From NCBI RefSeq assembly GCF_000189295.2, contig NC_016803.1, positions 30,001 through 62,000 of the forward strand: a stretch of 32,000 nt of DNA, in the 5' to 3' direction. This DNA comes from Pseudodesulfovibrio mercurii (lineage in GTDB: Bacteria > Desulfobacterota > Desulfovibrionia > Desulfovibrionales > Desulfovibrionaceae). Both the position numbers and the translations under genes were made by a program. Below the pieces are notes generated by a model. The model ran no database searches, was not told the origin of the DNA, and saw only the letters and a program-made list of their open reading frames with translations. This document shows positions 1 through 24,975 of this stretch, in pieces. The first letter of the stretch is position 1. Each line of letters begins with the position of its first letter.

Positions 1-1294
1 TCTGTTCTTCGCTGGTCTTTTCCGTGCAGGCCACCAGCAGGCCGTTTTCCAGTCCCTCGAAGTAGCGGCCCAGCGGGAAGCCCGGGACAAAGCCGCGCTC
101 GGTCAGCTTGGCGATGACCTCGAAGGCGTTGACCGGCAGGGTCACGGCGAACTCGTTGCCGAAGGCGCCCTTGGTCAGCATCTCCACGCCGGGGATAGCG
201 GTCAGCTTCCCGGCGCAGATGTGGGCGCGTTCCACCGACACCCTGGCCGCGCGCTTGAGGCCGAGCTCGCCCAGCGCGCACATGTGGACCAATGCGCGCA
301 GGGCGCACAGGGACTGGTTGGAGCAGATGTTGGACGTGGCCTTCTGGCGGCGGATGTGCTGCTCGCGCGCCTGGAGGGTGAGCACGTAGCCCGTGCGGCC
401 CTTGGTGTCCGTGGTCCGGCCCACGATGCGGCCGGGCATCTGGCGGACCATGGCCTTGGTGCAGGTCATGATGCCCAGGTACGGGCCGCCGAAGGAGAGC
501 GGCAGGCCCAGGGACTGGCCCTCGGCCACGGCCACGTCAGCGCCCATGGCGCCGGGCGTCTTGAGCAGGGACTGGAGCACCGGGTAGGCGGACACGATGG
601 ACACGGCCTTGACCTTGGCGGCGGCCTCGAACAGCCCCGTGAAGTCGTTGATGGAGCCGAAGAAGTTCGGGTTCTGGACCAGCACGGCGGCGATGGAGTC
701 GTCCAGGGCCGCCTTGAGCCCCTCGATGTCGGTCATGCCGTCCTTGTGGGGCACGGTGACGAACTCGAGGTCCAGGTTGGAGGTGTAGGAGCCGAGCATG
801 ACCCGGTAGATGGGGTTGAGCGCCTCGGAGACCACGATCTTGCGCCGTTTGGTCTTGCGCACGGCCATCATCAGGGCCTCGTACAGGGCGGTGCCGCCGT
901 CGTAGACCGAGGCGTTGGCGCACTCCATGCCCAGCAGCCGGGTCACGGCGGTCTGGTACTCGAAGATGGCCTGGAGGGTGCCCTGGGAAGCCTCGGGCTG
1001 GTAGGGCGTGTAGGCGGTGTAGAACTCCCCGCGCATGGTCAGGGCGTCCACGGCGGCCGGGATGTAGTGGTCGTAGAAGCCCGCGCCCAGGAAGCTGACG
1101 CTGTTGGTGGCGTTCTTGGCGGCCAGTCCCTCCAGCTTGGAGAGGACGTCCATCTCGCTCAACCCCTCGGGGATGTCGAAACTCTTGGGGCGCATGTCCG
1201 GGGTGATCTCGGCAAAGAGGTCCTCCACGGAATCCACGCCGATGGTGGCGAGCATCTCGCGCACTTCGTCTTCGGTATGCGGTACAAACGGCAT
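1..1294 (-). CDS. gcvPA: Glycine dehydrogenase (aminomethyl-transferring) subunit 1, GcvPA; the last few C-terminal codons run off the window edge
   Basis: Absent from the ORF track because no stop lies inside the window. The reverse complement from 1294 downward reads MPFVPHTEDEVREMLATIGVDSVEDLFAEI... and stays open to position 2 (...LLVACTEKTSEEQ), which is typical GcvPA sequence. It lies directly downstream of gcvH. The + strand ORF 221..1789 is its antisense shadow. Confidence 0.9.
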   Translation of the reverse strand, partial: MPFVPHTEDEVREMLATIGVDSVEDLFAEITPDMRPKSFDIPEGLSEMDVLSKLEGLAAKNATNSVSFLGAGFYDHYIPAAVDALTMRGEFYTAYTPYQPEASQGTLQAIFEYQTAVTRLLGMECANASVYDGGTALYEALMMAVRKTKRRKIVVSEALNPIYRVMLGSYTSNLDLEFVTVPHKDGMTDIEGLKAALDDSIAAVLVQNPNFFGSINDFTGLFEAAAKVKAVSIVSAYPVLQSLLKTPGAMGADVAVAEGQSLGLPLSFGGPYLGIMTCTKAMVRQMPGRIVGRTTDTKGRTGYVLTLQAREQHIRRQKATSNICSNQSLCALRALVHMCALGELGLKRAARVSVERAHICAGKLTAIPGVEMLTKGAFGNEFAVTLPVNAFEVIAKLTERGFVPGFPLGRYFEGLENGLLVACTEKTSEEQ

Positions 1295-1316
1295 GATGAA
1301 ACCTGCTCGGTTATGG

Positions 1317-1352
1317 GGAAAAAGAAAAGGGCCGAGACATGTGCCCCGGCCC
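1317..1352 (-). terminator. Hairpin plus U-tract between gcvH and gcvPA (intra-operon terminator/attenuator candidate)
   Basis: The minus strand reads GGGCCG-N12-CGGCCC followed by UUUUCUUUUUCC, inside the 72-nt gap between the gcvH stop and the gcvPA start. Confidence 0.4.
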
Positions 1353-1366
1353 CGTCGGCGTTTCGC

Positions 1367-1747
1367 CTAGTGGGCCTCGGATTCGACCACCGCGGCGTAG
1401 CCCTCGGCGTCCAGCAGCCCCTCGGGGGCGCCCTTGATCCGGAACTTGAGCATCCAGCCCGCGCCGTAAGGCTCCTCGTTGACCCTCTCGGGCGCGTCCG
1501 CGAGCTCCTCGTTGACCTCGATGACCTCGCCGGAAACCGGGGCGTAGATCTCGCTAGCGGCCTTGACGGATTCGACGGAACCCATCTCCGCGCCCGCCTC
1601 GAAGGTGTCGCCCACCTCGGGCAGCTCCACGAAGGTCAGGTCGCCGAGCTGTTCCTGGGCGAACTGGGTGATGCCCACGGTGGCCACGTCGCCCTCGACC
1701 AGGACCCACTCGTGGGTTTTCGCATACAACAGATCTTCGGGAATCAT
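1367..1747 (-). CDS. gcvH: Glycine cleavage system protein H (lipoyl carrier)
   Basis: 126-aa [40 protein letters not shown]...[18 protein letters not shown]... with the lipoyl-lysine motif ESVKA. An AAGGAGAG Shine-Dalgarno lies upstream of the ATG. Confidence 0.95.
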
Positions 1748-1985
1748 ATCTCTCTCCTTGATTCGAAAAGGGGGTTATCGGGTGGTTGATCGCTAGTCTT
1801 TAGCATGGGATGAATGTGTTGGAAACAGTAAAAATAATGACAGTTTCATGGTTTTCATCCGTAATTTCCGACGAACGTGCGAATTCGCCAAAAAGCTGAC
1901 GAATCCGATTCGGTCCCGCCTGAAATAGCCCCATGTTTTCGGGCGATTGGGCAAGTCCTCGTATCCCATAACGTCATACATGTTT
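1748..1985 (-). promoter_or_regulatory. Long (~235 nt) AT-rich structured 5' leader of gcvH; candidate variant glycine riboswitch
   Basis: Minus-strand RNA 1968..1911 reads GGGAUA CGAGGACUUGCCCAAUCG CCCGAAAACAUGGGGC UAUUUC AGGCGGGACCG. The P1-like pairing is GGGAUA/UAUUUC. CGCCCGAA..GGGGC and UCAGGC..GGAC resemble the conserved CGCCGAAGGGGCAA and CUCAGGCAAAAGGAC cores but carry indels. A second nested hairpin, GGAUGAA...UUCAUCC, spans 1808..1860. The 62-aa ORF 1793..1981 here looks non-coding. Confidence 0.3.
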
Positions 1986-2047
1986 TATTCTGATGGTGTA
2001 AAAAGTATTACGAAGACGGTTGACCATGGCACGGGGCAGGGGTAATC

Positions 2048-2758
2048 TTGTGGGTGCGTATGAGCAGTGCACCGTCCATATCCCCCCCCGCGGCCCGCTT
2101 CTGCGAGCCCGACCCCGGCTCCCGCGTGGAGGTGGCGGTGGGCGGTCGCGTCTGGCTGCTGGACCGCGCCGCCGACATGGAGGCCCTGTGGGACGCCATG
2201 GACGGCCAGGACCTGGACGAGGACGAGCGGCTGCCGTACTGGGCCGAGGTCTGGCCCGCCAGCGTGCTGCTCGGGCGGCACATCCTGCGCAACGCGGAGC
2301 GCCTGCGGGGCCGGACCTGCCTGGACATCGGCTGCGGGCTCGGCCTGACCGGCATGATCGCGTCCTCGGTGGGGGCGCGGGTGGCGGCCTTCGACTACGA
2401 GTGGCCCGCCGTGCGCTTCGCCCGGCACAACGCCGCGCTGAACGACGTCCCCCAGCCCCTGTGGCTGCTCATGGACTGGCGGCATCCCGCCCTCAAACCC
2501 GGCGGCTTCGACTTCATCTGGGGCGGGGACGTGCTCTATGAAAAGCGATTTTTCGACCCCCTGATCCGGCTCTTCCGCCACGCGCTCGCGCCTGACGGAC
2601 GCATCTGGATCGGCGAGCCCGTGCGCACCGTGTCCCGGCCCGTCTGGGAGCGGCTCGAGGACGAGGGGTTCGCGACCGAGAAATTGACCGTGGAGAAGGT
2701 CGCCCTGTGCGGCCAGAACGCCACGGTAAACCTGTGGGAAATCACCATTCCCCGATAG
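2048..2758 (+). CDS. Class I SAM-dependent methyltransferase, protein-lysine methyltransferase-like (Methyltransf_16 type)
   Basis: The 236-aa ORF carries [18 protein letters not shown], the SAM motif [17 protein letters not shown], the acidic AFDYE, and [19 protein letters not shown]. The start is GTG 2048 or ATG 2060. A TTGACC-N17-TAATCT sigma-70-like promoter at 2020..2048 would favour 2060. Confidence 0.75.
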
Positions 2759-2769
2759 TGGAGGACACT

Positions 2770-3189
2770 ATGGGCAAGACCATCCGATTCGGCGTGTCTC
2801 TGGACTCCGACCTGCTCGAAAAGTTCGACCAACACTGCGAGGAGCGCAGCTACCAGACCCGCTCCGAAGCCATCCGCGACCTCATCCGCAACACCCTGGT
2901 CCAGCGCGAATGGGAACAGGCCGAGGGCGACCTGGCCGGGACCCTGACCCTGGTCTACGACCACCACAAGTCCGGGCTGTCCCAGAAGCTGACCGAGATC
3001 CAGCACGATTCCCACGAGGTCATCCAGTCCTCGCTGCACGTGCACCTCGACCACTTCAACTGCCTGGAGGTCATCATCCTCAAGGGCGATGCCGAGACCA
3101 TCAAGGAGCTCGGCCAGAAGCTCATCTCCACCAAGGGCGTCAAACACGGCAACCTCGCCTTGACAACCACGGGCAAAGACTTGATTTAA
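2770..3189 (+). CDS. nikR: Nickel-responsive transcriptional regulator NikR (ribbon-helix-helix plus metal-binding domain)
   Basis: [20 protein letters not shown]... is an RHH N-terminus. The C-domain HVHLDHFNC has H-x-H-x5-C spacing identical to the E. coli NikR high-affinity Ni site. GGAGGA sits 6 nt upstream of ATG 2770. The track ORF start at 2707 is an upstream extension overlapping the methyltransferase gene. Confidence 0.9.
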
Positions 3190-3193
3190 GAGG

Positions 3194-3312
3194 GCCTCCG
3201 GCGGCCGGTGGAAGGGAGAGAAAAACCCTTTGGAAAGGGTTCTTTCCCTCCCTTCCACCGGACCCCCATCCCTCCCTTTTCCCAAACTTTTTGGGGCCGC
3301 TTCGCGGGGCCG
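3194..3312. repeat. Composite palindromic intergenic repeat, copy A (forward orientation)
   Basis: GCCTCCGGCGGCCGG + long hairpin GGAAGGGAGAGAAAAACCCTTTGGAAAGGGTTCTTTCCCTCCCTTCC + CCGGACCCCCATCCC + AAACTTTTTGG + CCGCTTCGCGG. It aligns end to end with copies at 4748, 6284 and 6493. Confidence 0.9.
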
Positions 3313-3364
3313 GGGGAGGGGATGCGTCATCCGGCGCGAGTGGGGAAGGGGGAGAAAGTAAGGG

Positions 3365-4144
3365 ATGATATTTATGGAAGACGTACAGCAGAGTCAGGCG
3401 ACCATCGCCATGCCCATCGACCGTGTGGGCGTCAAGGGATTGCGGCTGCCCATCGTGGTCCGCGACCGCGAGTCCGGGGTCCAGCACACCGTGGCCCAGG
3501 TGTCCATGTCCGTGGACCTGCCCGCCGAGTTCAAGGGCACGCACATGAGCCGCTTCGTGGAGGCCCTGGAGCACTGGGAGGGGACGCTCGACTACCACTC
3601 CTTCCTGACCCTGCTCGACGACATCGTGGACCGGCTCCAGGCCCGCAGCGCCCACCTGCGCTTCGTGTTCCCCTATTTCCTGCGCCGCCGGTCGCCGGTC
3701 TCCAAGGCGGGCGGCATGATGGACTATACCTGCCGCGTGGACGGCTACCTCAAGGACGGCAAGCTGACCTTCACCCTGGGCGCGGACGTGCCGGTCATGA
3801 CCGTGTGTCCGTGCTCCAAGGCCATCTCGGACGAAGGCGCGCACTCCCAGCGGGCCGAGGTGCGCATCCTGACCCGCTTCGAGGGCTTCCTCTGGCTCGA
3901 GGACCTCATCGAGATCGGCGAGCGCGCCGGGTCCTGCCAGGTCTACTCCCTGCTCAAGCGCGAGGACGAGAAATACGTCACCGAGACCGCCTTCGCCCAC
4001 CCGACCTTCGTGGAGGACGTGGTCCGCGAGGCGGCCAAGGGGCTGGACGAGCACCCCAAGGTCACCTGGTACAAGGTCGAGGTGGAGTCCTTCGAGTCCA
4101 TCCACAACCACTCGGCCTTCGCGGTCATCGAGAGCGACGGGTAG
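3365..4144 (+). CDS. folE2: GTP cyclohydrolase FolE2 (GTP cyclohydrolase IB, MptA/FolE2 family)
   Basis: 259-aa ORF with family hallmarks: DVQ near the N-terminus, [23 protein letters not shown]. The start is ATG 3365 or ATG 3374. Confidence 0.9.
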
Positions 4145-4232
4145 CCGTTTCCCTCCCGGTTTGCATCCCGCGCCGCAAACGGCTATGGTGAATCCCGGCT
4201 GCTTCCCCAACCCCGCCAGGGGGTGATCTCTC

Positions 4233-4559
4233 ATGTCCGACGCCAATGTCTCGGCCCTGTCCGCCCTGTCCACCGTGCAGGAGGTCTCGGCCAACAACAT
4301 CGCCAACATGAACACCGACGGCTTCCGGGCCGGCGCGGTGAGCCTCGAGTCCGGCCCCGGTGGCCAGGGCGTGGAGGTGGCCTCCATCACCGAGTCCACC
4401 GCGCCCGGCGCCTTCATCAACGGGGTGGAGACCTCCAACACCGACGTCGGCCGCGAGATGGTCGACATGATCGTCACCAGCCGCGCCTTCGAGGCCAACA
4501 CCACCTTCATCCGCGCGTCCGAGGAGATGACCGGCCACCTGCTGGACATGATCGCCTGA
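4233..4559 (+). CDS. Short flagellar basal-body rod family protein, FlgC-like (108 aa), orphan location
   Basis: The N-terminal rod motif is VSANNIANMNTDGFR. The C-terminal rod motif is SNTDVGREMVDMIVTSRAFEANTTFIRASEEM. The central GVEVASITESTAPG parallels E. coli FlgC GGVKVASVIESQAP. GGGGGTGA lies 7 nt before the ATG. Confidence 0.75.
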   Translation: MSDANVSALSALSTVQEVSANNIANMNTDGFRAGAVSLESGPGGQGVEVASITESTAPGAFINGVETSNTDVGREMVDMIVTSRAFEANTTFIRASEEMTGHLLDMIA

Positions 4560-4747
4560 CCCTCAGCCCGGGGGCGGCCCGGCCGCTTTCCGCCCCGCCT
4601 TGACAGCCTCCCTTTTCATGTCTTACGGTCTATCATGGCCCGTCTGTGCGCGTTCCCCTTTTTCCCGGACGCACGGCACGGGCCATACTTGCGTGACAAC
4701 ACCAAACCCCTGAGCAGGGGATTCACTTCCGCTCTCCTTCGATCCGC

Positions 4748-4863
4748 GCGCACTGCGCCGACAAAAAGTTTTGGAAGGATGAGGGGATGGGGGTCCGGTG
4801 GAAGGGGAGAAGGAAACCTTTTTCAAAAGGTTTCCTTCTCCCCCTCCCCCGGCCGCCGGAGGC
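4748..4863. repeat. Composite palindromic intergenic repeat, copy B (inverted orientation)
   Basis: Its reverse complement aligns with copy A: GCCTCCGGCGGCCGGGGGAGGGGGAGAAGGAAACCTTTTGAAAAAGGTTTCCTTCTCCCCTTCCACCGGACCCCCATCCCC...AAAACTTTTTGT + GCGC-AGT-GCGC hairpin. Confidence 0.9.
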
Positions 4864-4871
4864 ATCACACC

Positions 4872-6266
4872 ATGACCAAGACCGTGAAGACCGATTACGA
4901 CGTCATCATCGTGGGCGCGGGCCCGGCCGGGCTGTTCGCCGCCTACTACCTGGGCGAGCATTCCAACCTGGACGTGCTGATCATCGACAAGGGCAAGCGT
5001 TCCCTCAAGCGCAACTGTCCCCTGTCCGGGGACCAGGAGTGCGTCAAATGCCGCCCGTGCAACATCCTGTGCGGCGTGGGCGGGGCGGGGCTGTTCTCCG
5101 ACGGCAAGCTCAACTACATCCACAAGCTCGGCAAGACCGACCTGACCCAGTTCGTGGGCACCTCCGAGGCCCTCCGGCTCATCGACGAGACCGAGCACAT
5201 CTTCAATACCTTCGGCATGGACGGCAAGGTCTTCCCCACGGACATGGAGGCGGCCAGGCAGATCCGCAAGGACGCCCGCAAGCACGGTATCGACCTGCTG
5301 GTCATCAAGCAGAAGCATCTGGGCAGCGACAATCTGCCCGGCCACATCGCGGGCATGGCCGACCACATCCGCGACAAGGGCGTGGCCTTCCACACCTCCG
5401 AGACCGTCACCGACGTGGTCGTGACCAAGGGCAAAGTCACCGGCGTGGTCACCAACCGCCAGACGTACACCGCCAAGAACGTCATCCTCGCCCCCGGCCG
5501 CGTGGGCGCGGAATGGGTCGCCCATGAGGCGCGCAAGCACGGCATCCAGGTGTCCCAGCGCGGCATCGAGGTGGGCGTGCGCGTGGAGGTCCACAACGAG
5601 ATCATGCAGGACCTCTGCTCGGTCATCTACGACCCGACCTTCTTCGTGCGCACCAACAAGTACGACGACCAGACCCGGACCTTCTGCACCAACTACGGCG
5701 GCTACGTGGCACTGGAAAACTACCAGGACTTCGTCTGCGTCAACGGCCACGCGCTCATGAACAAAAAGTCCGACAACACCAACTTCGCCTTCCTCTCCAA
5801 GGTCGTCCTCAACGACCCGGTGGAGGACAACCAGGCCTACGGCGAGTCCATCGGCCGGTTGGCCACCCTCATCGGCGGGGGCAAGCCCATCCTTCAGCGG
5901 TTCGGCGACCTGCGCCGCGGCCGACGGTCCACCTGGGACCGCATCGGCAACGGCTACATCGAGCCGACCCTGCGCAACGTGGTCCCCGGCGACATCGCCA
6001 TGGCCCTGCCCGAACGCATCCTGACCAACCTCATGGACGGCCTGGAACAGCTCAACAACGTGGTCCCCGGCGTGTCCAACGACGAAACCCTGCTTTACGC
6101 CCCGGAGATCAAGTTCTTCGCCACCCAGGTGGATACCCGCAAACACCTGGAAACCAGCGTGGACGGCCTGTTCGTGGCCGGCGACGGACCCGGCGTGGCC
6201 GGCAACATCGTCGGCGCCGCCGCCACCGCCCTCATCCCCGCCAAGGAAATCATCCGCCGCTCGTAG
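4872..6266 (+). CDS. NAD(P)/FAD-dependent oxidoreductase, COG2509-type uncharacterised FAD-dependent dehydrogenase
   Basis: MTKTVKTDYDVIIVGAGPAGLFAAYYL is a Rossmann GxGxxG. The Cys cluster CPLSGDQECVKCRPCNILCGVGGAGLFSDGKL and the C-terminal DGLFVAGDGPGVAGNIVGAAATA are also present. The track ORF start at 4635 is an extension through the repeat. ATG 4872 is preceded by GGAGG. Confidence 0.85.
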   Translation: MTKTVKTDYDVIIVGAGPAGLFAAYYLGEHSNLDVLIIDKGKRSLKRNCPLSGDQECVKCRPCNILCGVGGAGLFSDGKLNYIHKLGKTDLTQFVGTSEALRLIDETEHIFNTFGMDGKVFPTDMEAARQIRKDARKHGIDLLVIKQKHLGSDNLPGHIAGMADHIRDKGVAFHTSETVTDVVVTKGKVTGVVTNRQTYTAKNVILAPGRVGAEWVAHEARKHGIQVSQRGIEVGVRVEVHNEIMQDLCSVIYDPTFFVRTNKYDDQTRTFCTNYGGYVALENYQDFVCVNGHALMNKKSDNTNFAFLSKVVLNDPVEDNQAYGESIGRLATLIGGGKPILQRFGDLRRGRRSTWDRIGNGYIEPTLRNVVPGDIAMALPERILTNLMDGLEQLNNVVPGVSNDETLLYAPEIKFFATQVDTRKHLETSVDGLFVAGDGPGVAGNIVGAAATALIPAKEIIRRS

Positions 6267-6283
6267 GCGGCGGATGCGTGAGC

Positions 6284-6404
6284 CGCCTCCGGCGGCCAGG
6301 GGGGAAGGGGGAAAGAGGGCACCCTTTGAAAAGGGCTGCCCTCTCTCCCCCTTCCCCCCTCCCTCTCACCCTCCTAAACTTTTTGGTGCCGCTTCGCGGG
6401 AGGC
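6284..6404. repeat. Composite palindromic intergenic repeat, copy C (forward orientation)
   Basis: GCCTCCGGCGGCCAGG + hairpin GGGGAAGGGGGAAAGAGGGCACCCTTTGAAAAGGGCTGCCCTCTCTCCCCCTTCCCC + ...AAACTTTTTGG + CCGCTTCGCGG + GGAGGC. It is followed by GGTTGTTTTTTG and starts 17 nt after the oxidoreductase stop, so it likely acts as that gene's terminator. Confidence 0.9.
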
Positions 6405-6492
6405 GAGGGCGGTTGTTTTTTGTGGAATGCCGGGATTCGAGCGTTGGCGAAATAAAAGCTCAAAAGCATGGTTGGTGCTTCCGCACGGACCT

Positions 6493-6553
6493 GCCGAAGG
6501 CACACAAAAGGTTCTTGAGCGGGGTCCGGGGCGGCGCCCCGGCCGCCGGAGGC
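6493..6553. repeat. Composite palindromic intergenic repeat, copy D (inverted, central hairpin deleted or replaced)
   Basis: The reverse complement reads GCCTCCGGCGGCCGGGGCGCCGCCCCGGACCCCGCTCAAGAACCTTTTGTGT + GCC-TTC-GGC. It keeps the end modules of A-C but has a short GC hairpin in place of the 45-nt core. Confidence 0.75.
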
Positions 6554-6722
6554 GTTCTTCTCCCCACAGGGCAGGGGGGTGGTTTTCCAGAATTTCTTTA
6601 TATGAGGGGGTTATAGTCGTTGACATGCCGTCAGTAAATTGACAGAGAAGACGTATAGTAAAGATATGGCTGCGGGGCAGGGGGTCCCGTCGGTCGTGTA
6701 TCCATGCGTATTCGGAGGGGAA

Positions 6723-7739
<1,017 letters not shown>

Positions 7740-7803
7740 CCTGCGGGGTAGGGCAAGAGCTGCCCGTTTCACGGGTAGCACGACAATTGCATAACTGCTT
7801 GCC

Positions 7804-10800
7804 GTGACTGTGAAATATGTCAAAAGCATAGCCTGGCCCCTGGCGGCCGCCCTTGTCTTGGGACTGATCCTGGCCGATCCCGCCCAAGCCCTGCGGGTGG
7901 ATTTTTCTTCCCAGGGCGGTGGAGATAGGCTGGTTTTCGCTTTTGATTCCGCGACGTTGCCCAAGTCGTCCGTGGCCCGGACAGGCAAGACGTCCGTGAA
8001 GGTCCTGCTGCCTGTCGGCATCTGGGACCGCGAGGCCAGGCCCGAGTCCCGGAATTTCCCCGGCAGGCTGGTCAAATCCATGGCCATCACGGACAACGGG
8101 GTGGAGATCACCACCTCGACCGACGCCTTCGGCTACATCCGCGTGCCCGAGCAGGGCAAACCCGAATTTGTGCTCCAGGTCTATGGCGACCCCATCGGCG
8201 CGCGCTGGCAATCGCCCGACGCGCCGCCCGCCCGGACCGCCCAGGCCGCCCGGATCGCGACCCCGGCCGTGAAACCCCAGGTTGCCCAGGCCGCGAAAGC
8301 CCCGGCGGCCGCGCCGGCGAAAGCCCCGGCCGTTCCGGCTCCCGAACCCAAGGCCCCCACGGCCGCCGATGTGGCCCGCAATCTTTCCACGGTCCGTCCG
8401 GACCAGCCCGGCCCGGCGCGGGCCGAGGCGGACCTGCCGCCCGAGACCCCGCCCGCCGACCGCAAGCCGTTTTTCGCGGTGCCCTATTCCGTGCGCGACG
8501 AGGTTAAGGCCCCCGGCGACCAGACGGCCGCCCCGGCAGGGGGCGCGGCGCCCGCCGAGACCGTGACCGGCGACTATCCGCCCGCCAGCGAACTGCGCTT
8601 CAAGGCGGTGAACAAGTCGGCGGAACAAGTGAAATTCGCGGAACTGGCCGGTGACGCCGGGACCGGTTCCCCGGCGGCCGCGCCGGCCGGGACCGACGCC
8701 GAACCGGCCGCCGAACCGGCCATGCGCCAGGCCGTGACGCCCCCGCAGCAGGGAGGTGCGCCCGAGCCGCAACCAGCCGTCGAAGTTCCTGCCCCGGCGC
8801 AGGAGCCCCAGGCCGCCAACGAGGTGGTCGCCGAGGTGACGCCGCCCCCGGCCCCGGTCGAGGTCTCGGGCGCGGGCCAGGCGGGTGGCGCTGTGTCGCC
8901 GCCTCCGCCGCCGGTATCCGGTGCGGGACAGGCTGGCGGCGCGGTTTCGCCGCCTCCGCCTCCGGCCGCCCCGAGCGCCCCGATCGCCGAGACAGTACAG
9001 CCGGTTGAGCCGCCCGTGCAGCCCGTGGCCGAACAGCCCGCCCCCGAAGTCCAGCCCGAGGCCGAACAGGCCGCGCAGCCGGCAGAGGCCGCGCAGCCGG
9101 AGCAGGCCGCCGCACCCGGCGCCGAGGGAGCGCCCGCCCCGGAATTGTCGCCCGAGGAAAAGGAGAAGGCCCGGCTTGAGGCCATCAACGATAAGCTGGG
9201 CGAGGCCCAGTCCCTGATGTTCAACGGGGCCCTGGACGAGGCCCTGCCCCTGTTCGAGGACATCCTCAAGCAGCCCAAGCTGCCGGACGACGTGCGCGAG
9301 GAGACCCTGTACGCCGTGGCCGACATCAAGAAGCAGCTCGACGCGAACGACCTGCCGGGCAAGTTCGACGAGGTGGCCCAGGCGTACATCCAGGCCATGA
9401 ACGCCAACCTGCGCTCCAACCGCGTGCCGCGCGCCCTGCTCAACCTCGGTCTGCTCAACCTCCAGGTGGGCAACTTCCCCGAGGCCCGGGCCTATTTCAA
9501 GATCCTGCAGGACAAGTACCCGGACGACGACAACATTCCGTCCATCAGCTACTACTGGGGCGAATACTGGTACCGCAAGGGCGACTACAAGAAGGCCGCC
9601 GACCAGTTCCAGCAGCTCATCCAGACCTATCCCGAGCACCAGCTGGCCAAGCAGGCGGCCTATTACCTGGCCGATTCCCTGGACCGGTTGGGCTACCTGG
9701 ACCAGGCCTACCAGATCGTGGACTACATCGACAAACGCTGGCCCGACTACTACATGGAAAACATGGAGTTCCTGCGGTTGGCGGGCGGCGTGGAGATGCA
9801 GCTCAAGAAGTGGGACCCGGCCAAGAATCACTATTTCACCTACTACAACCTGAACCCCGAGGCCGACGGCGCGGACGTGGTCCTGGCCCGCATCGGGGAC
9901 ATCTATCTTCGCAAGAATCAGAAGGACGCGGCCAAGCAGGTCTACGAGAAGGCGGTCAAGGATTTCCCGGACAAGGAGGGCGGGCTCATCGCCAAGATGC
10001 GTCTGGCCGAGGAGGGCATCTACGACGATCCGGCCATGAACGAGATGGTCGATGTCTTCAACCGCCCGTACAACCTCAATCCCAAGCGGGTCTACACCGA
10101 GATCGTTTCGCAGCACCCGGACAGCCCGTTGGCCCCCATCGCCCAGCTCAAGCTGGCCATGTGGCACGCCTTCCACAAGCAGTACCCCGAGGCGCTGACC
10201 GCCGCCCAGGACCTCATCGAGAAGTACCCGGACAGCCCGCTGGCGGACAAGGCCCGGACGCTCGGCGACTCGGTCTTTGTCAGGGCCGTGCCCGGCATGC
10301 TCGCCGAGCAGCGCTACGGCCGCATCGTCCGCTACTGGGAGACCTACGACTTCATCGGCAAGAAGGACTCCAAGGTCGACGACAACACCCGGCTCGCCAT
10401 CGCCACCAGCTACTGGAAGATCGGCCAGCCCGCCAAGGCCCTGGAGCTGCTCAAACCGTATCTGACCAAGAAGCAGATTCCCGGCATCTCGGACCAGGCC
10501 CTGGGCCTGGCCGTGAACATCCACCTGGACCAGCTGGCCTGGCAGGACATCTCGGACCTGGTGTCCATGGCCTCGAAGAACTGGAAGCTCAAGCCCGAGC
10601 AGCAGCGCCAGCTGGACTACGCCAGGGCCATGGCCCTCCAGAACCTGGGCGACAGCCGACGCGCCGTGACCCTGTGGGCCGATCTGGCCAAGGACATGAC
10701 CGTGGACCCGGCCTTCCGGGCCTACGCCATGTACTACATGGCCAAGGACGCCATGGAGCGCCAGGACCTGCGCCGGGTCTTCGTCTATTCCCAGGAGGCC

Positions 10801-17986: not shown

Positions 17987-20920
17987 CTAGTCGATGGTGC
18001 GGGCGACTTCCTTGGTCTCGAAGACCTCGATGGTGTCGCCGACCTTGACGTCGTTGAACTTCTCCAGGCCGATGCCGCACTCGTAGCCCTTGACCACTTC
18101 GCGGACGTCGTCCTTTTCGCGGCGCAGGGACGCGACCTGGCCGGTGTAGATGACCACGCCGTCGCGCAGCAGGCGCGCCTTGGCGTTGCGGGTGATCTTG
18201 CCGTCGGCCACGAAGCAGCCCGCGATGACGCCGACCTTGGGCACGTTGAAGGTGGCGCGCACCTCGGCCTGGCCCAGGTAGACCTCCTCGATGTCCGGGG
18301 TGAGCATGCCGCTCATGGCGTCCTTCACTTCCTGCACCAGCTTGTAGATGATGTCGTAGAAGCGGATTTCGACGCCTTCCTGTTCGGCGATCTGCTTGAC
18401 CTTCAGGTTCGGGCGCACGTTGAAGCCGATGATGATCGCTTCGGAGGCTCCCGCCAGGAGGATGTCGGACTCGGTGATGGCGCCCGCGCCGCCGTGGACC
18501 ACGCTGATCTTGACCTCGTCCGTGGACAGCTTGTTCAGGGCCTCGGTCACGGCTTCCAGCGAACCCTGCACGTCGGCCTTGAGGACCAGGTTCAGGGTCT
18601 GGGCCTCGTCGTTGGGCCTGGAGGCCAGGAAGGACTCCAGGGTGACCTTGGTCTTGGCGGACAGGATCTTCTCGCGTTGCTTCATGGCGCGGCTTTGAGC
18701 GATGCGGCGGGCGACCTTCTCGTCGTCCACCACGAACAGCTCGTCACCGGCCTCGGGCAGGCCGTCGAAGCCCTGGATTTCCACGGGCAAGGCCGGTCCG
18801 GCGGATTTGATCTTCTTGCCCTGGTCGTTGAACATGGCCCGGACCTTGCCGAAGTGGATGCCGGACACGAAGGAGTCGCCCTGGTTCAGGGTGCCTTCGC
18901 TGATGAGCATGGTGCCCACCGGGCCGCGGCCCTTGTCCAGGCGCGCCTCGACGATGTGGCCCCGGGCGTGCTTGTCCGGGTTGGCCTTGAGCTCCATGAC
19001 CTCGGCCTGGAGCAGGACCATCTCGAGCAGCTCGTCGATGCCTTCCTTCTTCTTGGCAGAGACCGGGGCGAAGATGGTGTCGCCGCCCCATTCCTCGGGA
19101 GACAGGCCGAGTTCGGCCAGCTCGCGCTTGACGTTGTCCGGGTTGGCCCCTTCCTTGTCCATCTTGTTCACGGCCACGACGATGGGCACGCCCGCCGCCC
19201 TGGAGTGGGAGATGGCCTCGCGGGTCTGGTCCATGACGCCGTCGTCGGCGGCGACCACCAGGATGACGATGTCGGTCACCTGGGCGCCGCGCATGCGCAT
19301 GGTCGTGAAGGCCTCGTGGCCGGGGGTGTCCAGGAAGACGATCTCGCCCCGGTCGGTCTGCACGTGGTATGCGCCGATGTGCTGGGTGATGCCGCCCGCT
19401 TCGCCCTCGGTCACGTGGGACATGCGGATGGCGTCGAGCAGGGAGGTCTTGCCGTGGTCGACGTGGCCCATGATGGTCACGACCGGCGGACGCGGCTTGA
19501 GGTCCTCATCCTTGTCCGCCTGGGTGGGGACGAGGAATTCCTGCTCGTCAAAGGAAATGTTCTCCACCTCGTAGCCGAACTCGCCGGCCAGCAGGGAAGC
19601 GGTGTCCAGATCCAGGGACTGGTTGATGGTCGCCATGACGCCCATGCCGAACAGGGCCTTGATCAGGTCCTGGGCCTTGACGCCCATCTGGTGGGCCATG
19701 TCGGACAGCCGGATGGCCTCGTCGAATTTGATCTTGCGCTTGGCCGCCTTCATGGGCTGCGCCTGACCCTGTTCCTGCTGCATGATGGGCTGCTGGCCGC
19801 GACGTGCCCCTCCCTTCTTCTTGCGGCCCTTGCGGCCCGCCGGGAAGTTGCTGTCGTTGTACAGCTTGTTGGTGTGGTCCTGGCCGCTCTCGGTGGCGAA
19901 CTCCACCACGCGGCGGTCCTTCTTGCCCTTTTTCTTCTTGCTGCGGCCGTCGCCCACGGACGGATCCGGCATGGGACCGTCGGAACCGCCTTCGGGACCT
20001 GCGCCGGGCCGACCGGGACGTCCGGCCGGGCGAGCGCCCGCCGGACGGGGGGACGCGGGGCGTCCGCCTGCGGGACGGCGTTCGGGCTGGGCCATCTTGG
20101 CCGCTTCGCGGGCCTGCACCTCCGCCTCGGTGGGCATGGAGATGATCTTGACCTTGGGGGCCTCGACCTCGCGCTTCTTCTTTTTCTTCTTCCGGGGCTC
20201 GCCGCGTTCGGCCTTGTCCTCGTCCTCGAAAGAGGCTTCGGGCTCCTCGCGCACGGCCTTGCCGGCCGGCTTTTCGGGAGCGGCAGCCTCGGCGACCGGG
20301 GCTTCGGGTTCGGCAACGGGTGCGGCTTCGGGTTCGGCGACGGCTTCGGGTGCGGGTGCGGCTTCGGGCCGGGCTTCGGCAGGCGCGGGTTCGGGAACGG
20401 CCTCTTCTGCCACGGCTTCAGCGACCGGAGCCGGTTCGGCTTCGGCGGCCACCGGTTCGGGGGCCTGAACGGGCTCCTCCACGGCGGGCTTGATGATTCG
20501 GACCTTGGGCTCGGCCTTGCGCGGGGCCGGCTTGGGCGCGGGCTCCTCGACGGGCTCGGCCACGGGCTCCTGCGCGGCGGGTTCGGCCTCCACGGCCTCG
20601 GGCGCTTCGGTCTCCGGGACGGACTCCTCGGACTCCTCGTCCGATTCCTCGATCTCGGGGGCCTCGGCCTCTTCCCTGGGGGACTTGGCCTTCTTGCGCC
20701 TGCGCCGGATGATGACGCCGGATTCGCCCACGCGGCGGACCTCCTTCTTGCCGGAGCCGCCTTTCTTCAATTCCGCCTTGAGGCGGTCCACATCTTCGTC
20801 TTCCACGACGGTCTTCTGGCTTTTCGCCTGAACGCCGATCTCACGAAGCTGCTGAATGATCTCCTTGTTGCTGAGACCGAGCTCAGCAGCCAAGTCTTCT
20901 ACCCGAACCTTCGCCGTCAT
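17987..20920 (-). CDS. infB: Translation initiation factor IF-2 with a long acidic/Pro-Ala-rich N-terminal region
   Basis: 977 aa with G-domain [29 protein letters not shown] and the C-terminal domains. A GAGGTGA SD lies inside the ylxR 3' end. Confidence 0.97.
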
Positions 20921-23187: not shown

Positions 23188-23263
23188 TGGAGCGGGTGAC
23201 GGGGGTCGAACCCGCGACACCAAGCTTGGGAAGCTTGTACTCTACCAACTGAGCTACACCCGC
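23188..23263 (-). tRNA. tRNA-Gly (anticodon CCC), CCA encoded
   Basis: The hand-folded cloverleaf is GCGGGTG TA GCTC AGTTGGTA GAGT A CAAGC TTCCCAA GCTTG GTGTC GCGGG TTCGACC CCCGT CACCCGC T CCA, 76 nt with U73 discriminator. Confidence 0.93.
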
Positions 23264-23397: not shown

Positions 23398-24174
23398 ATG
23401 CGGGACAGTACACAGAGCGCCATTTTCGGGGCTTTATCCAATGAATTGAGGATGTCGTCCATCGCCAATAATTTGGCGAACGTGAACACGTCGGCCTTCA
23501 AGAAAGACAAGCTGGCCTTCCATGACACCTTCATTCGTTTCGCCCATGACTATCTGGTAGACGCCAAGACCTACATCCGGGGCGAGGACATGTTCCCGGA
23601 GGGGCACATCATGGCCAAGGCGCGGCTGTCGGCCCAGCAGGCGGACCTGTCCCAGGGCAGCATGGAGCGCACGGGCAACCAGCTCGACTTCGCCCTGTCC
23701 GGGCCGGGGTTCTTTTCCGTCCAGGGCGACACCGCCATGCTCTACACCCGCGCCGGGAACTTCGTCACCGACGGCGACGGAATGCTCAAGACCGTGGACG
23801 GCTATCCGGTCATGGTCGGCGGCGGCCCGCTGATCATCCCGCAGGGCGGGCGCATCCAGGTGGACGACGAGGGCAACATCCAGGTCAACGGCGAGCCCGC
23901 CGGGTCCTTCGACGTGGTGGACTTCGACAGCCCGGAACTGCTCGAACGGGTGGGGTCCAACAACTATATCATGCCCACCGGCGGGGCCCAGATTCCGCCC
24001 CAGGACGTGTCCGTGGCCCAGGGCTTCATCGAGAAGTCCAACGTGGAGGTCGTCACCGAGATGGTCTCCATGATCGAAACCCAGCGGGCCTTCACCATGT
24101 ATACCAAGATGATCCAGGGCGACAGCGATCTGGACTCCAAATTGATCAACCAGGTGGGACGTCCCACCGCCTAG
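23398..24174 (+). CDS. flgF: Flagellar basal-body rod protein FlgF
   Basis: 258 aa with N-terminal SIANNLANVNTSAFKKD and C-terminal GFIEKSNVEVVTEMVSMIETQRAFTMYTKMIQ. Confidence 0.9.
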   Translation: MRDSTQSAIFGALSNELRMSSIANNLANVNTSAFKKDKLAFHDTFIRFAHDYLVDAKTYIRGEDMFPEGHIMAKARLSAQQADLSQGSMERTGNQLDFALSGPGFFSVQGDTAMLYTRAGNFVTDGDGMLKTVDGYPVMVGGGPLIIPQGGRIQVDDEGNIQVNGEPAGSFDVVDFDSPELLERVGSNNYIMPTGGAQIPPQDVSVAQGFIEKSNVEVVTEMVSMIETQRAFTMYTKMIQGDSDLDSKLINQVGRPTA

Positions 24175-24192: not shown

Positions 24193-24975
24193 ATGATGCG
24201 TTCACTGTGGACATCCGCCACCGGCATGATCGCCATGCAGACCCAGATCGACACCCTGTCGAACAACCTGGCCAACGTCTCCACCACGGCCTTCAAGAAG
24301 AGCCGGGCGGAGTTCGAGGACCTCATGTACCAGACGCTGAAGATCGCCGGCGGGGAGAACGCCGACGGCACCCAGACGCCCGTGGGCATGCAGATCGGCA
24401 TGGGCGTGCGCCCCGTGTCCGTGCACAAGTTTTTCACCCAGGGCGACTTCCAGAACACCGGCAACCCCCTGGACATGGCCATCGAGGGCGAGGGCTTCTT
24501 CCAGGTCATGGTCAACGGCGACGAGGTCTACACCCGCGACGGCTCCTTCGAGCTGGACAGCGACGGCCGCGTGGTCACGGCGGGCGGCTACCCCCTGCAG
24601 CCGGAGTTCACCGTGCCCCCGGAGACGTCGAGCATCTCCATCTCCGAGACCGGGACCATCTCGGCCCTGGACAAGGACGGCACCGTGCTGGCCACGGCGG
24701 ACATCGACCTCTACCGCTTCCAGAACCCGGCCGGGCTCATCGCCACCGGGCGCAATTTCTATCGCGAGAGCGACGCCTCGGGCGTGGCCGTGGCCGGGAC
24801 CCCGGGGGACGACAACTACGGGACCATCGCCCAGGGCTTCCTGGAGGGGTCCAACGTGGAGATGGTGGACGAGATGGTCGGCCTGATCGTGGGCCAGCGC
24901 GCCTTCGAGATCAACTCCAAGGCCATCACCACCTCGGACGGCATGTTGCAGACGGCCATCAACATCAAACGGTAG
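24193..24975 (+). CDS. flgG: Flagellar basal-body distal rod protein FlgG
   Basis: 260 aa: MMRSLWTSATGMIAMQTQIDTLSNNLANVSTTAFKKSRAEFEDLMYQ... and GFLEGSNVEMVDEMVGLIVGQRAFEINSKAI. AGGAGG SD upstream. Confidence 0.95.
   Translation: MMRSLWTSATGMIAMQTQIDTLSNNLANVSTTAFKKSRAEFEDLMYQTLKIAGGENADGTQTPVGMQIGMGVRPVSVHKFFTQGDFQNTGNPLDMAIEGEGFFQVMVNGDEVYTRDGSFELDSDGRVVTAGGYPLQPEFTVPPETSSISISETGTISALDKDGTVLATADIDLYRFQNPAGLIATGRNFYRESDASGVAVAGTPGDDNYGTIAQGFLEGSNVEMVDEMVGLIVGQRAFEINSKAITTSDGMLQTAINIKR

Follow-up and report, generated by a model that had tools for sequence, protein, structure and literature searches.

What kind of element has been copied to four neighboring intergenic sites in Pseudodesulfovibrio mercurii, and what has preserved its folded core while the letters of that core have changed? 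The stretch analyzed here, referred to below as the window, is 32,000 nt long (NCBI RefSeq contig NC_016803.1, positions 30,001 to 62,000), and the four copies, units A to D, lie between its positions 3194 and 6553. The answer that we favor, with a probability of roughly 0.6, is that they belong to a non-autonomous mosaic family of Pseudodesulfovibrio and its relatives, akin to MITEs (miniature transposable elements of the inverted-repeat type) and to REPINs, the hairpin-forming doublets of repetitive extragenic palindromic (REP) sequences, and that a core capable of forming a triple helix would be under selection in it. The evidence is comparative and drawn from sequence: three segments of the core are shown to change together across diverged copies, as would be expected of a triple helix of ~17–21 base triads.

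The original prediction, made from the letters of the window, held the four copies to be real, and so they are. The 32 kb contain exactly four perfect copies of the 13-mer GCCTCCGGCGGCC, at 3194 and 6285 on the plus strand and at 4851–4863 and 6541–6553 on the minus strand, all further matches in the window carrying one or two mismatches. Two other modules, AAACTTTTTGG and CCYTTTNNAAARGG, are each found three times, against expectations of 0.06 and 0.14, and on either strand the big hairpins are very stable (-35 to -42 kcal/mol; z -4.9 to -6.6). Read 5' to 3', a unit consists of GCCTCCGGCGGCC, a hairpin whose 5' arm is purine-rich, a GGA turn, a pyrimidine third strand, AAACTTTTTG and a small G+C hairpin. 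What had been described as a constant module, CCGGACCCCCATCCC, is actually the GGA turn together with the co-varying third strand.

Further copies were collected by scanning the pattern GCCTCCGGCGGCC-N62-92-AAACTTTTTG once across 185,579 species genomes. A profile built from the copies so found was run on the window and on 688 kb of fetched loci (numbered with an L), the latter yielding 150 non-overlapping units, 122 of them near full length. In these units, the pyrimidine run that follows the turn mirrors the 3' arm of the hairpin, and thus complements the purine-rich 5' arm in parallel orientation (G to C, A to T), the relation beginning at the base of the stem. Two asymmetric arms illustrate the rule:

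L006: purine arm GGGGGAAGGGGGAAAGGAA, third strand CCCCCATCCCCCTTTCCTT
L007: purine arm GGGGGAAGGGGAGGAAAA, third strand CCCCCATCCCCTCCTTTT

Each third strand can be compared with the prediction from its own purine arm in a set of 56 long-type copies (window unit B included, window units A and C excluded), in which 34 purine arms and 45 pairs of arm and third strand are distinct. The mean distance is 2.7 edits, as opposed to 4.9 edits from the arms of other copies, and none of 100,000 permutations gives an edit sum as good. The candidate relations in which the third strand would run antiparallel to the purine arm or directly repeat the pyrimidine arm are rejected at 7.7 edits. Every one of the 34 arms, those of L006 and L007 included, has a matching third strand over the full 17–22 nt.

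A fuller parse, of 62 long-type units comprising 58 distinct three-strand haplotypes, gives the substitution spectrum. Opposite G, the third strand has C at 691 of 738 positions (94%); opposite A, it has T at 268 of 358 (75%) and A at 85 (24%), other letters almost never appearing. At register 0, 80% of positions are matched, falling to 58–61% when the register is moved by one position either way and to ~45% beyond. Among similar haplotypes, a difference in the purine arm goes with one in the third strand at the corresponding position (odds ratio 16). The three strands also vary in length together, between 17 and 22 nt, and a haplotype holds on average 17.1 canonical triads (range 12–21). An independent tool applied to alignment A2 finds the parallel column pairs 28–33 with 92–99 to be 93–97% matched, with 56 cells changed on both sides; none of 500 shuffles reaches this score, and every slid version scores lower. 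In 52 of 127 elements taken singly, no shuffle out of 300 reaches the observed third-strand run. The short subfamilies follow the same parallel-complement rule (AGGGAA to ACCCTC, AGAGAA to ACTCTC, AGAGGGGAAA to ACTCCCCTTC), as does a Desulfocurvus variant of quite different sequence, each with 4–8 triads and none individually significant.

The hairpins tell a related story, with compensatory changes in 13 of 30 consensus pairs family-wide, the small terminal hairpin included. Together with the parallel column-pair scores, which exceed those of all shuffles, these changes uphold the earlier suggestion that selection has acted on structure over sequence. As for the third strand, minimum-energy folds leave it unpaired, and the 110 nt downstream offer it no Watson-Crick partner. 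Pairing with the G-rich 3' flank was tried and rejected, the best runs (5.9–6.1) lying close to those of shuffles (5.5–5.8) and none being significant.

Could the mirror relation simply be a by-product of low-complexity purine/pyrimidine sequence and shared ancestry, in an ordinary hairpin-type REP or MITE that forms no triplex at all? The sequence is indeed of low complexity, and its core motifs (CCCTCTCCC, CCTTTCC) show mirror symmetry of their own; the copies share descent; the short subfamilies, with only 4–5 triads, reach no significance individually; and the BoxC repeats of Escherichia coli, for which a triplex has been proposed, have none established in vivo. However, no copying process makes a mirror or parallel-complement sequence, and shared ancestry therefore cannot explain the direction of the rule. 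Nor would such an account anticipate 34 distinct arms, asymmetric ones among them, each matched over 17–22 nt, the poor fit of the direct-repeat and antiparallel models, register and slide controls that favor register 0, or a substitution spectrum limited to canonical triads. We consider this explanation improbable.

The units of the window are built as follows, with R and Y denoting the purine and pyrimidine arms:

3194–3312, plus strand: unit A, long subtype (nhmmer E-value 6e-27), 4 nt past the nikR stop codon (3187–3189)
Unit A, 5' half: 13-mer 3194–3206; R arm 3207–3231; loop 3232–3233; Y arm 3234–3259
Unit A, 3' half: GGA turn 3260–3262; third strand 3263–3283 (CCCCCATCCCTCCCTTTTCCC); AAACTTTTTGG 3284–3294
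3297–3307, plus strand: small hairpin of unit A, CCGCTTCGCGG
4748–4863, minus strand: unit B, long subtype, inverted (nhmmer E-value 4e-31)
Unit B, read on the plus strand: small hairpin 4748–4758; CAAAAAGTTT 4762–4771; purine third strand 4773–4793 (GGAAGGATGAGGGGATGGGGG); TCC turn 4794–4796; purine arm 4797–4822; loop; pyrimidine arm 4825–4850; inverted 13-mer 4851–4863
4694–4747, minus strand: tail segment of unit B, which arrived with B and contains the hairpin CCCCTGAGCAGGGG
6285–6404, plus strand: unit C, long subtype, degenerate (nhmmer E-value 2e-21)
Unit C, 5' half: 13-mer 6285–6297; R arm 6298–6327; loop 6328–6330; Y arm 6331–6360
Unit C, 3' half: shortened third strand 6361–6374; AAACTTTTTGG 6376–6386; small hairpin 6389–6399
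6493–6553, minus strand: unit D, short subtype, inverted
Unit D, read on the plus strand: small hairpin ~6492–6502; internal deletion; CGGGG 6520–6524; TCC 6525–6527; mini hairpin GGGGCGGCGCCCC 6528–6540; inverted 13-mer 6541–6553

In unit A, the R arm has drifted at two positions, and the Y arm and third strand are still mutually consistent. Comparison with L035 shows that unit C has had its turn and the first half of its third strand deleted. Unit D lies below the usable length for the nhmmer profile; by its exact 13-mer and its module-by-module similarity (compare L065 and L036), it is a genuine short member of the family. The proline/glycine-rich open reading frames (ORFs) that cross the units in the window are spurious products of the repeat, just as had been supposed.

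The position of the units relative to genes bears on what the fold might be for. As judged from a crude ORF filter based on G+C at third codon positions, a caveat on these abutment counts that tells against our reading, the 13-mer end lies past a stop codon in 65 units, with a mode of 3–5 nt, and ahead of a start codon read away from the unit in 48, with a mode of 5–9 nt; the tail end is removed from genes by a median of 86 or 208 nt. That the 13-mer end lands on gene boundaries is shown, at the level of predicted genes. The flank ahead of the 13-mer is C-poor and tends to GRAT, and the complement of the 13-mer supplies a GGAGG ahead of start codons. Unit B offers an example, its 13-mer end lying 8 nt ahead of an oxidoreductase gene and placing GGAGG (4858–4862) 9 nt before the ATG at 4872; the 'Desulfovibrio caledoniensis' oxidoreductase, at a site without B, has a GAGGA of its own. 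The family is thereby predicted to rewire the ribosome-binding sites of Pseudodesulfovibrio core genes, the oxidoreductase at 4872 now having the element's GGAGG. The earlier placement of all copies 5–20 nt from stop codons is right for C, 18 nt past the oxidoreductase stop, and A does follow a stop, by 4 nt; it fails for B and for D, whose outer end is 169 nt from the next gene.

On which strand, and in which nucleic acid, would a triplex form? The top strand runs purine arm, pyrimidine arm, Hoogsteen strand, which is class III and the pyrimidine motif. The complementary strand runs reverse-Hoogsteen strand, purine arm, pyrimidine arm, which is class I and the purine motif, and its triads, G.G-C, A.A-T and T.A-T, are the canonical purine-motif set (triad rules for both motifs as in PMC4666352). 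A opposite A, the only frequent exception to the parallel-complement rule, is canonical, as T.A-T, on the complementary strand alone, and so favors the purine motif. At neutral pH, runs of 4–5 adjacent protonated cytosines are unfavorable. RNA does not form the purine motif (PMC4666352), and the orientation of units between co-directional genes (24 sense, 28 antisense) shows no bias to transcription. Taken together, these points favor single-stranded DNA of the purine-rich strand as the most likely site of the fold. Single-stranded DNA of the E. coli BoxC/TMECO repeat does fold as an intrastrand triplex, as seen by circular dichroism and nuclear magnetic resonance (PMC4666352).

These same points bear on the view that the element works as RNA, namely as a stable hairpin in 3' untranslated regions, possibly with a pyrimidine-motif RNA triplex clamp (C+.G-C, U.A-U), that would block 3' exonucleases or end transcripts in the manner of REP stabilizers or of an ENE-like clamp. 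In its favor are the extreme stability of the hairpins, the 65 of 124 units that are sense-oriented and lie a few nucleotides from a stop codon, and an order of blocks on the top strand (class III) that can form in RNA (PMC4666352). Yet the near equality of sense and antisense units and the 48 units that face a start codon speak against it, as do the cost of adjacent protonated cytosines and a conserved A opposite A that is non-canonical for the pyrimidine motif. The terminator role that had been proposed is also not borne out: neither hairpin is followed by a T-run, and the terminator scan leaves the hairpins of the units unflagged. A T-run lies within 45 nt of the tail in 10 of 119 units, 11 of 129 units sit just downstream of the T-run of another, existing terminator, and the G+C-rich hairpin with a direct U-tract that marks an intrinsic terminator is not seen. 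A known RNA family was likewise rejected, Rfam 15 giving only one tRNA elsewhere in the window and, for the region itself, generic miRNA-hairpin matches far below threshold. An RNA-level role for the family thus seems unlikely.

Less likely still is a non-B structure of duplex DNA, that is, H-DNA and/or a cruciform under negative supercoiling, which, like bacterial interspersed mosaic elements (BIMEs), would act as a supercoil sink, bind gyrase or nucleoid proteins, or pause replication or transcription at gene boundaries. The between-gene location is that of BIMEs, and the Y arm, GGA turn and third strand do form a perfect homopyrimidine mirror repeat, the defining requirement of H-DNA. However, H-DNA needs the mirror repeat only, which leaves unexplained why that strand should also retain the purine arm in inverted-repeat form. 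It is the presence of this arm on the same strand that makes a single strand self-sufficient for triplex formation.

That the triplex forms in vivo, on which strand it does so and how the element moves are matters of inference, and we would picture them as follows. The core would be kept by selection for a double fold-back of the single strand into an intramolecular triple helix of ~17–21 triads; folding would take place while the purine-rich strand is transiently single-stranded, during replication or the element's own movement; and the fold would serve the propagation or persistence of the element rather than host gene regulation. A bolder version of this picture, possible though on balance doubtful, is that the triplex is the functional core of a mobile element, a recombinase or transposase recognizing the folded strand and placing the element at stop and start codons. 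If that were true, the family would provide the first comparative covariation proof of a DNA triple helix under natural selection in living cells.

The family is dispersed and apparently mobile. The pattern scan found 88 places in ~15 genomes, mostly of Pseudodesulfovibrio: 36 between 32 kb and 4.11 Mb on the 4.15-Mb chromosome of 'Desulfovibrio caledoniensis' lm2024, 11 in P. karagichevae, and the remainder in several Pseudodesulfovibrio isolates and metagenome-assembled genomes (MAGs) and in Desulfocurvus, Desulfobulbaceae and 'Oscillospiraceae' MAGs. The repeat is therefore a dispersed intergenic one found in many genomes, which supports the original prediction; that it might be a local duplication or a chance similarity limited to this locus, in line with the window's having all four units within 3.4 kb and none in its other 28 kb, is refuted by these 88 places, the 150 units in the fetched loci and the spread across a whole chromosome. 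Nothing on the family or its 13-mer was found in the literature.

Orthologous sites show the family to have been recently gained and lost. The window is ~90% identical to a D. caledoniensis locus (L053) over 663–8955. Unit A is present at the orthologous site there (L053 2532–2647); unit B and its 54-nt tail are missing, window 4694–4870 corresponding to only 16 nt in L053. A second comparison, of L027 with the empty site L086, has the unit inserted exactly between a TAG stop codon and the GAGAA of the next gene, and with unit B establishes the expected presence/absence polymorphism. At L053 5497–5530, orthologous to units C and D, a strong terminator is followed by a truncated unit (13-mer and purine arm only), which on this alignment shows decay in place, and truncated and decayed copies occur elsewhere in the family. 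A separate observation concerns public assemblies: a Logan contig (SRR3926153; L001) identical to window 3333–5467, the sole public contig encoding the exact FolE2, ends a short way downstream of unit A, 33 nt upstream of folE2. The repeat may be a point at which short-read assemblies break.

The family has a composite architecture as well. All 37 pairs of units closer than 600 nt are arranged tail to tail, with gaps of 44–225 nt, and 32 of them join one long and one short unit, where ~18 would be expected. The resulting composites measure 253–465 bp and carry the 13-mer as a terminal inverted repeat at their outer ends; their centers differ from one to another and are not conserved. The window contains one:

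6285–6553, no strand assigned: C-D composite, 269 bp, consisting of long unit C, a center and inverted short unit D, with 13-mers at both ends
6405–6492, no strand assigned: center of the C-D composite, more A+T-rich, with weak terminator-like sites at 6392–6408 (plus strand) and 6483–6461 (minus strand)

Units that stand alone, as A and B do, probably represent half-elements or remnants. Units A (plus) and B (minus) themselves stand tail to tail with their 13-mers outward, bracketing folE2 and a mini-rod gene, 1438 nt apart; because the same genes occur in D. caledoniensis without B, this bracket is probably a coincidence and not a composite transposon. A G-rich stretch after A (window 3313–3355; GGGGGAGGGGATG ... 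GGGGAAGGGGGAGAAAG) resembles the purine strands of an inverted partner unit, and A may be the left half of a decayed composite that reached the folE2 start.

The 13-mer also has a life outside these units. In the form GCCTCCGGCGG(C/G)C, it heads other short module families (L006, L013, L046, L075, L088 and others), for instance cgggtgacttc / GCCTCCGGCGGGC AAGGGTTCGCACCCTTG CATCCC...GCGCCTTCGGCGC, or GCCTCCGGCGGCC CCTTCGGGGAGA CCAGGGCGCTGCCCTGG ACCCGC, the latter with a mini set of arm, arm and mirror (GGGC GCT GCCC TGGA CCCG). This suggests a wider mosaic, BIME-like superfamily sharing the 13-mer. Four loci, L057 and L064 ('Oscillospiraceae' MAG) and L050 and L071 (Desulfovibrio sp. UBA2564), combine the same 13-mer and AAACTTTTTG with inner hairpins that are wholly different; this would mean either that distant hosts share the ends as functional sites or that the MAG bins are contaminated.

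Beyond the crude gene boundaries mentioned above, several points weigh against a mobile family with a selected triplex core. On the side of the fold, the copies are related by descent, so that shuffle statistics overstate their independence, the direction of the rule being unaffected; the third strand has T opposite ~4% of G positions, a combination that neither motif admits as canonical; the bottom strand is also prone to form G-quadruplexes; and the folds were computed with ViennaRNA, which does not model triplexes. The BoxC triplex, for its part, has been shown for isolated single strands only, and neither in duplex DNA nor in vivo could its formation be demonstrated.

On the side of movement, there is no target-site duplication at 21 composite junctions or in the two comparisons of filled and empty sites, no recurrent transposase-like ORF, including the REP-associated tyrosine transposase RAYT, in the 688 kb of flanks sampled, and no autonomous partner, the 13-mers outside units in the fetched loci heading only short modules and never an ORF. 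The collections searched gave no match that would indicate viral or plasmid carriage, and 26 solo units show no replication-strand bias. The window, too, has no transposase near the units, as had been noted from the start. Several candidates were set aside along the way. An AT beside the 13-mer, as a target-site duplication, is found on both sides in only 3 of 21 composites and is better read as an end extension or as the GRAT flank preference. Recurrent clusters of neighboring ORFs, as candidate transposases, proved to be ABC ATPases, chemoreceptors, radical-SAM enzymes and the like, or artifact ORFs crossing units. An integron attC or dif-like site was rejected since no core motifs were apparent by inspection and copies lie beside core genes chromosome-wide.

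The genes around the units, assigned by Pfam, are the following:

2707–3189: nikR
3365–4144: folE2
4233–4559: 108-aa rod-motif protein
4872–6266: flavin adenine dinucleotide (FAD) oxidoreductase
6723–7739: sigma-54 activator

The 108-aa protein between units A and B has only the N-terminal (PF00460) and C-terminal (PF06429) flagellar rod motifs, and its gene lies far from the flagellar cluster at 23.4–31 kb. A tRNA gene (23191–23263, minus strand) is followed by two paralogous FlgF/FlgG-type rod genes (23398–24174 and 24193–24975, plus strand), which share a 104-nt stretch at 73% identity (24005–24108 and 24818–24921). Elsewhere in the window, tandem 12-nt repeats (GGCTTCGGGTTCGGC...) at 20300–20446 lie inside infB (initiation factor IF-2, 17987–20920, minus strand) and encode its repetitive N-terminal region.

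How, then, does the family compare with known systems? Its likeness to REP, BIME and REPIN elements, as had been proposed, holds in part. They too are high-copy extragenic palindromes, with inverted doublets separated by a short spacer in REPINs and subtype mosaics in BIMEs; singlets look like decayed doublets, and a single unit lacks both a target-site duplication and a terminal inverted repeat. Strict REP membership fails, as the GTAG/CGTC tag is absent, all 130 units that reach profile position 1 starting with GCCT. Units here are 85–130 nt long, as opposed to 20–40 nt for REP, and the third strand is extra. With bacterial MITEs such as Correia/CREE, ERIC and RUP, the composites share their non-coding, intergenic nature, terminal inverted repeats (of 13 nt here), presence/absence polymorphism and the provision of expression signals to neighbors, here a Shine-Dalgarno sequence. 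Unlike MITEs, the composites have no target-site duplication, their arms are different subtypes and not inverted copies, and no autonomous insertion sequence with the same ends was found in the fetched loci.

Two triplex-forming systems offer more distant parallels. The mirror repeats of H-DNA resemble the homopyrimidine mirror formed by the Y arm and third strand around a 3-nt center; unlike in H-DNA, the purine partner is on the same strand, and a full triplex would be possible without the complementary strand. In the ENE of PAN and MALAT1 and of some transposon transcripts, U-rich internal loops clamp an A-rich 3' tail via U.A-U triads. The likeness lies in a major-groove triple helix tied to transcript 3' regions and to mobile elements, whereas C.G-C or G.G-C make up most of the candidate triads in this family, which lacks an A-tract and uses the two orientations equally.

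The closest precedent is the intrastrand-triplex repeat of E. coli known as BoxC, PIT or TMECO (Hoyne/Maher 2000; Holder et al. 2015, PMC4666352), to which the present family appears, by analogy, to be related in kind while being a different family. Our units contain the blocks of the PIT/BoxC type (classes I–IV), namely an R arm, a Y arm and a mirror third strand. Both are multi-copy, intergenic and G/C-rich, with three consecutive purine/pyrimidine blocks on one strand, a 3-nt second loop and two strands of which one could adopt the purine motif and the other the pyrimidine motif; both often occur as inverted pairs of two subtypes, lack a linked transposase, and undergo local gain, loss and decay. 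They differ in that the TMECO consensus CCCTCNCCC N3-6 GGGNGAGGG N3 GGGNGAGGG (class II) has 0 matches on either strand of the window and the 688 kb, in domain order (class I/III here, class II/IV in BoxC) and in the number of triads, 17–22 here against 9 in BoxC and an ITxF search range of 6–15. Here, unlike in BoxC, the core sits inside a larger modular unit with conserved termini, and there is a sharp preference for stop and start codons where TMECO shows none. Ever since the description of BoxC/PIT elements, it has been asked whether DNA triplexes do anything in bacteria, and because the copies of those elements are nearly identical, sequence comparison could not test for selection on their fold. 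In the present family, by contrast, many haplotypes have diverged with concerted change in all three strands, and it was evidence of this kind that established RNA secondary structures. It should therefore be of interest for the study of non-B DNA and of bacterial repeats, and it points to concrete oligonucleotides and genomes in which a triplex of the BoxC kind can be tested.

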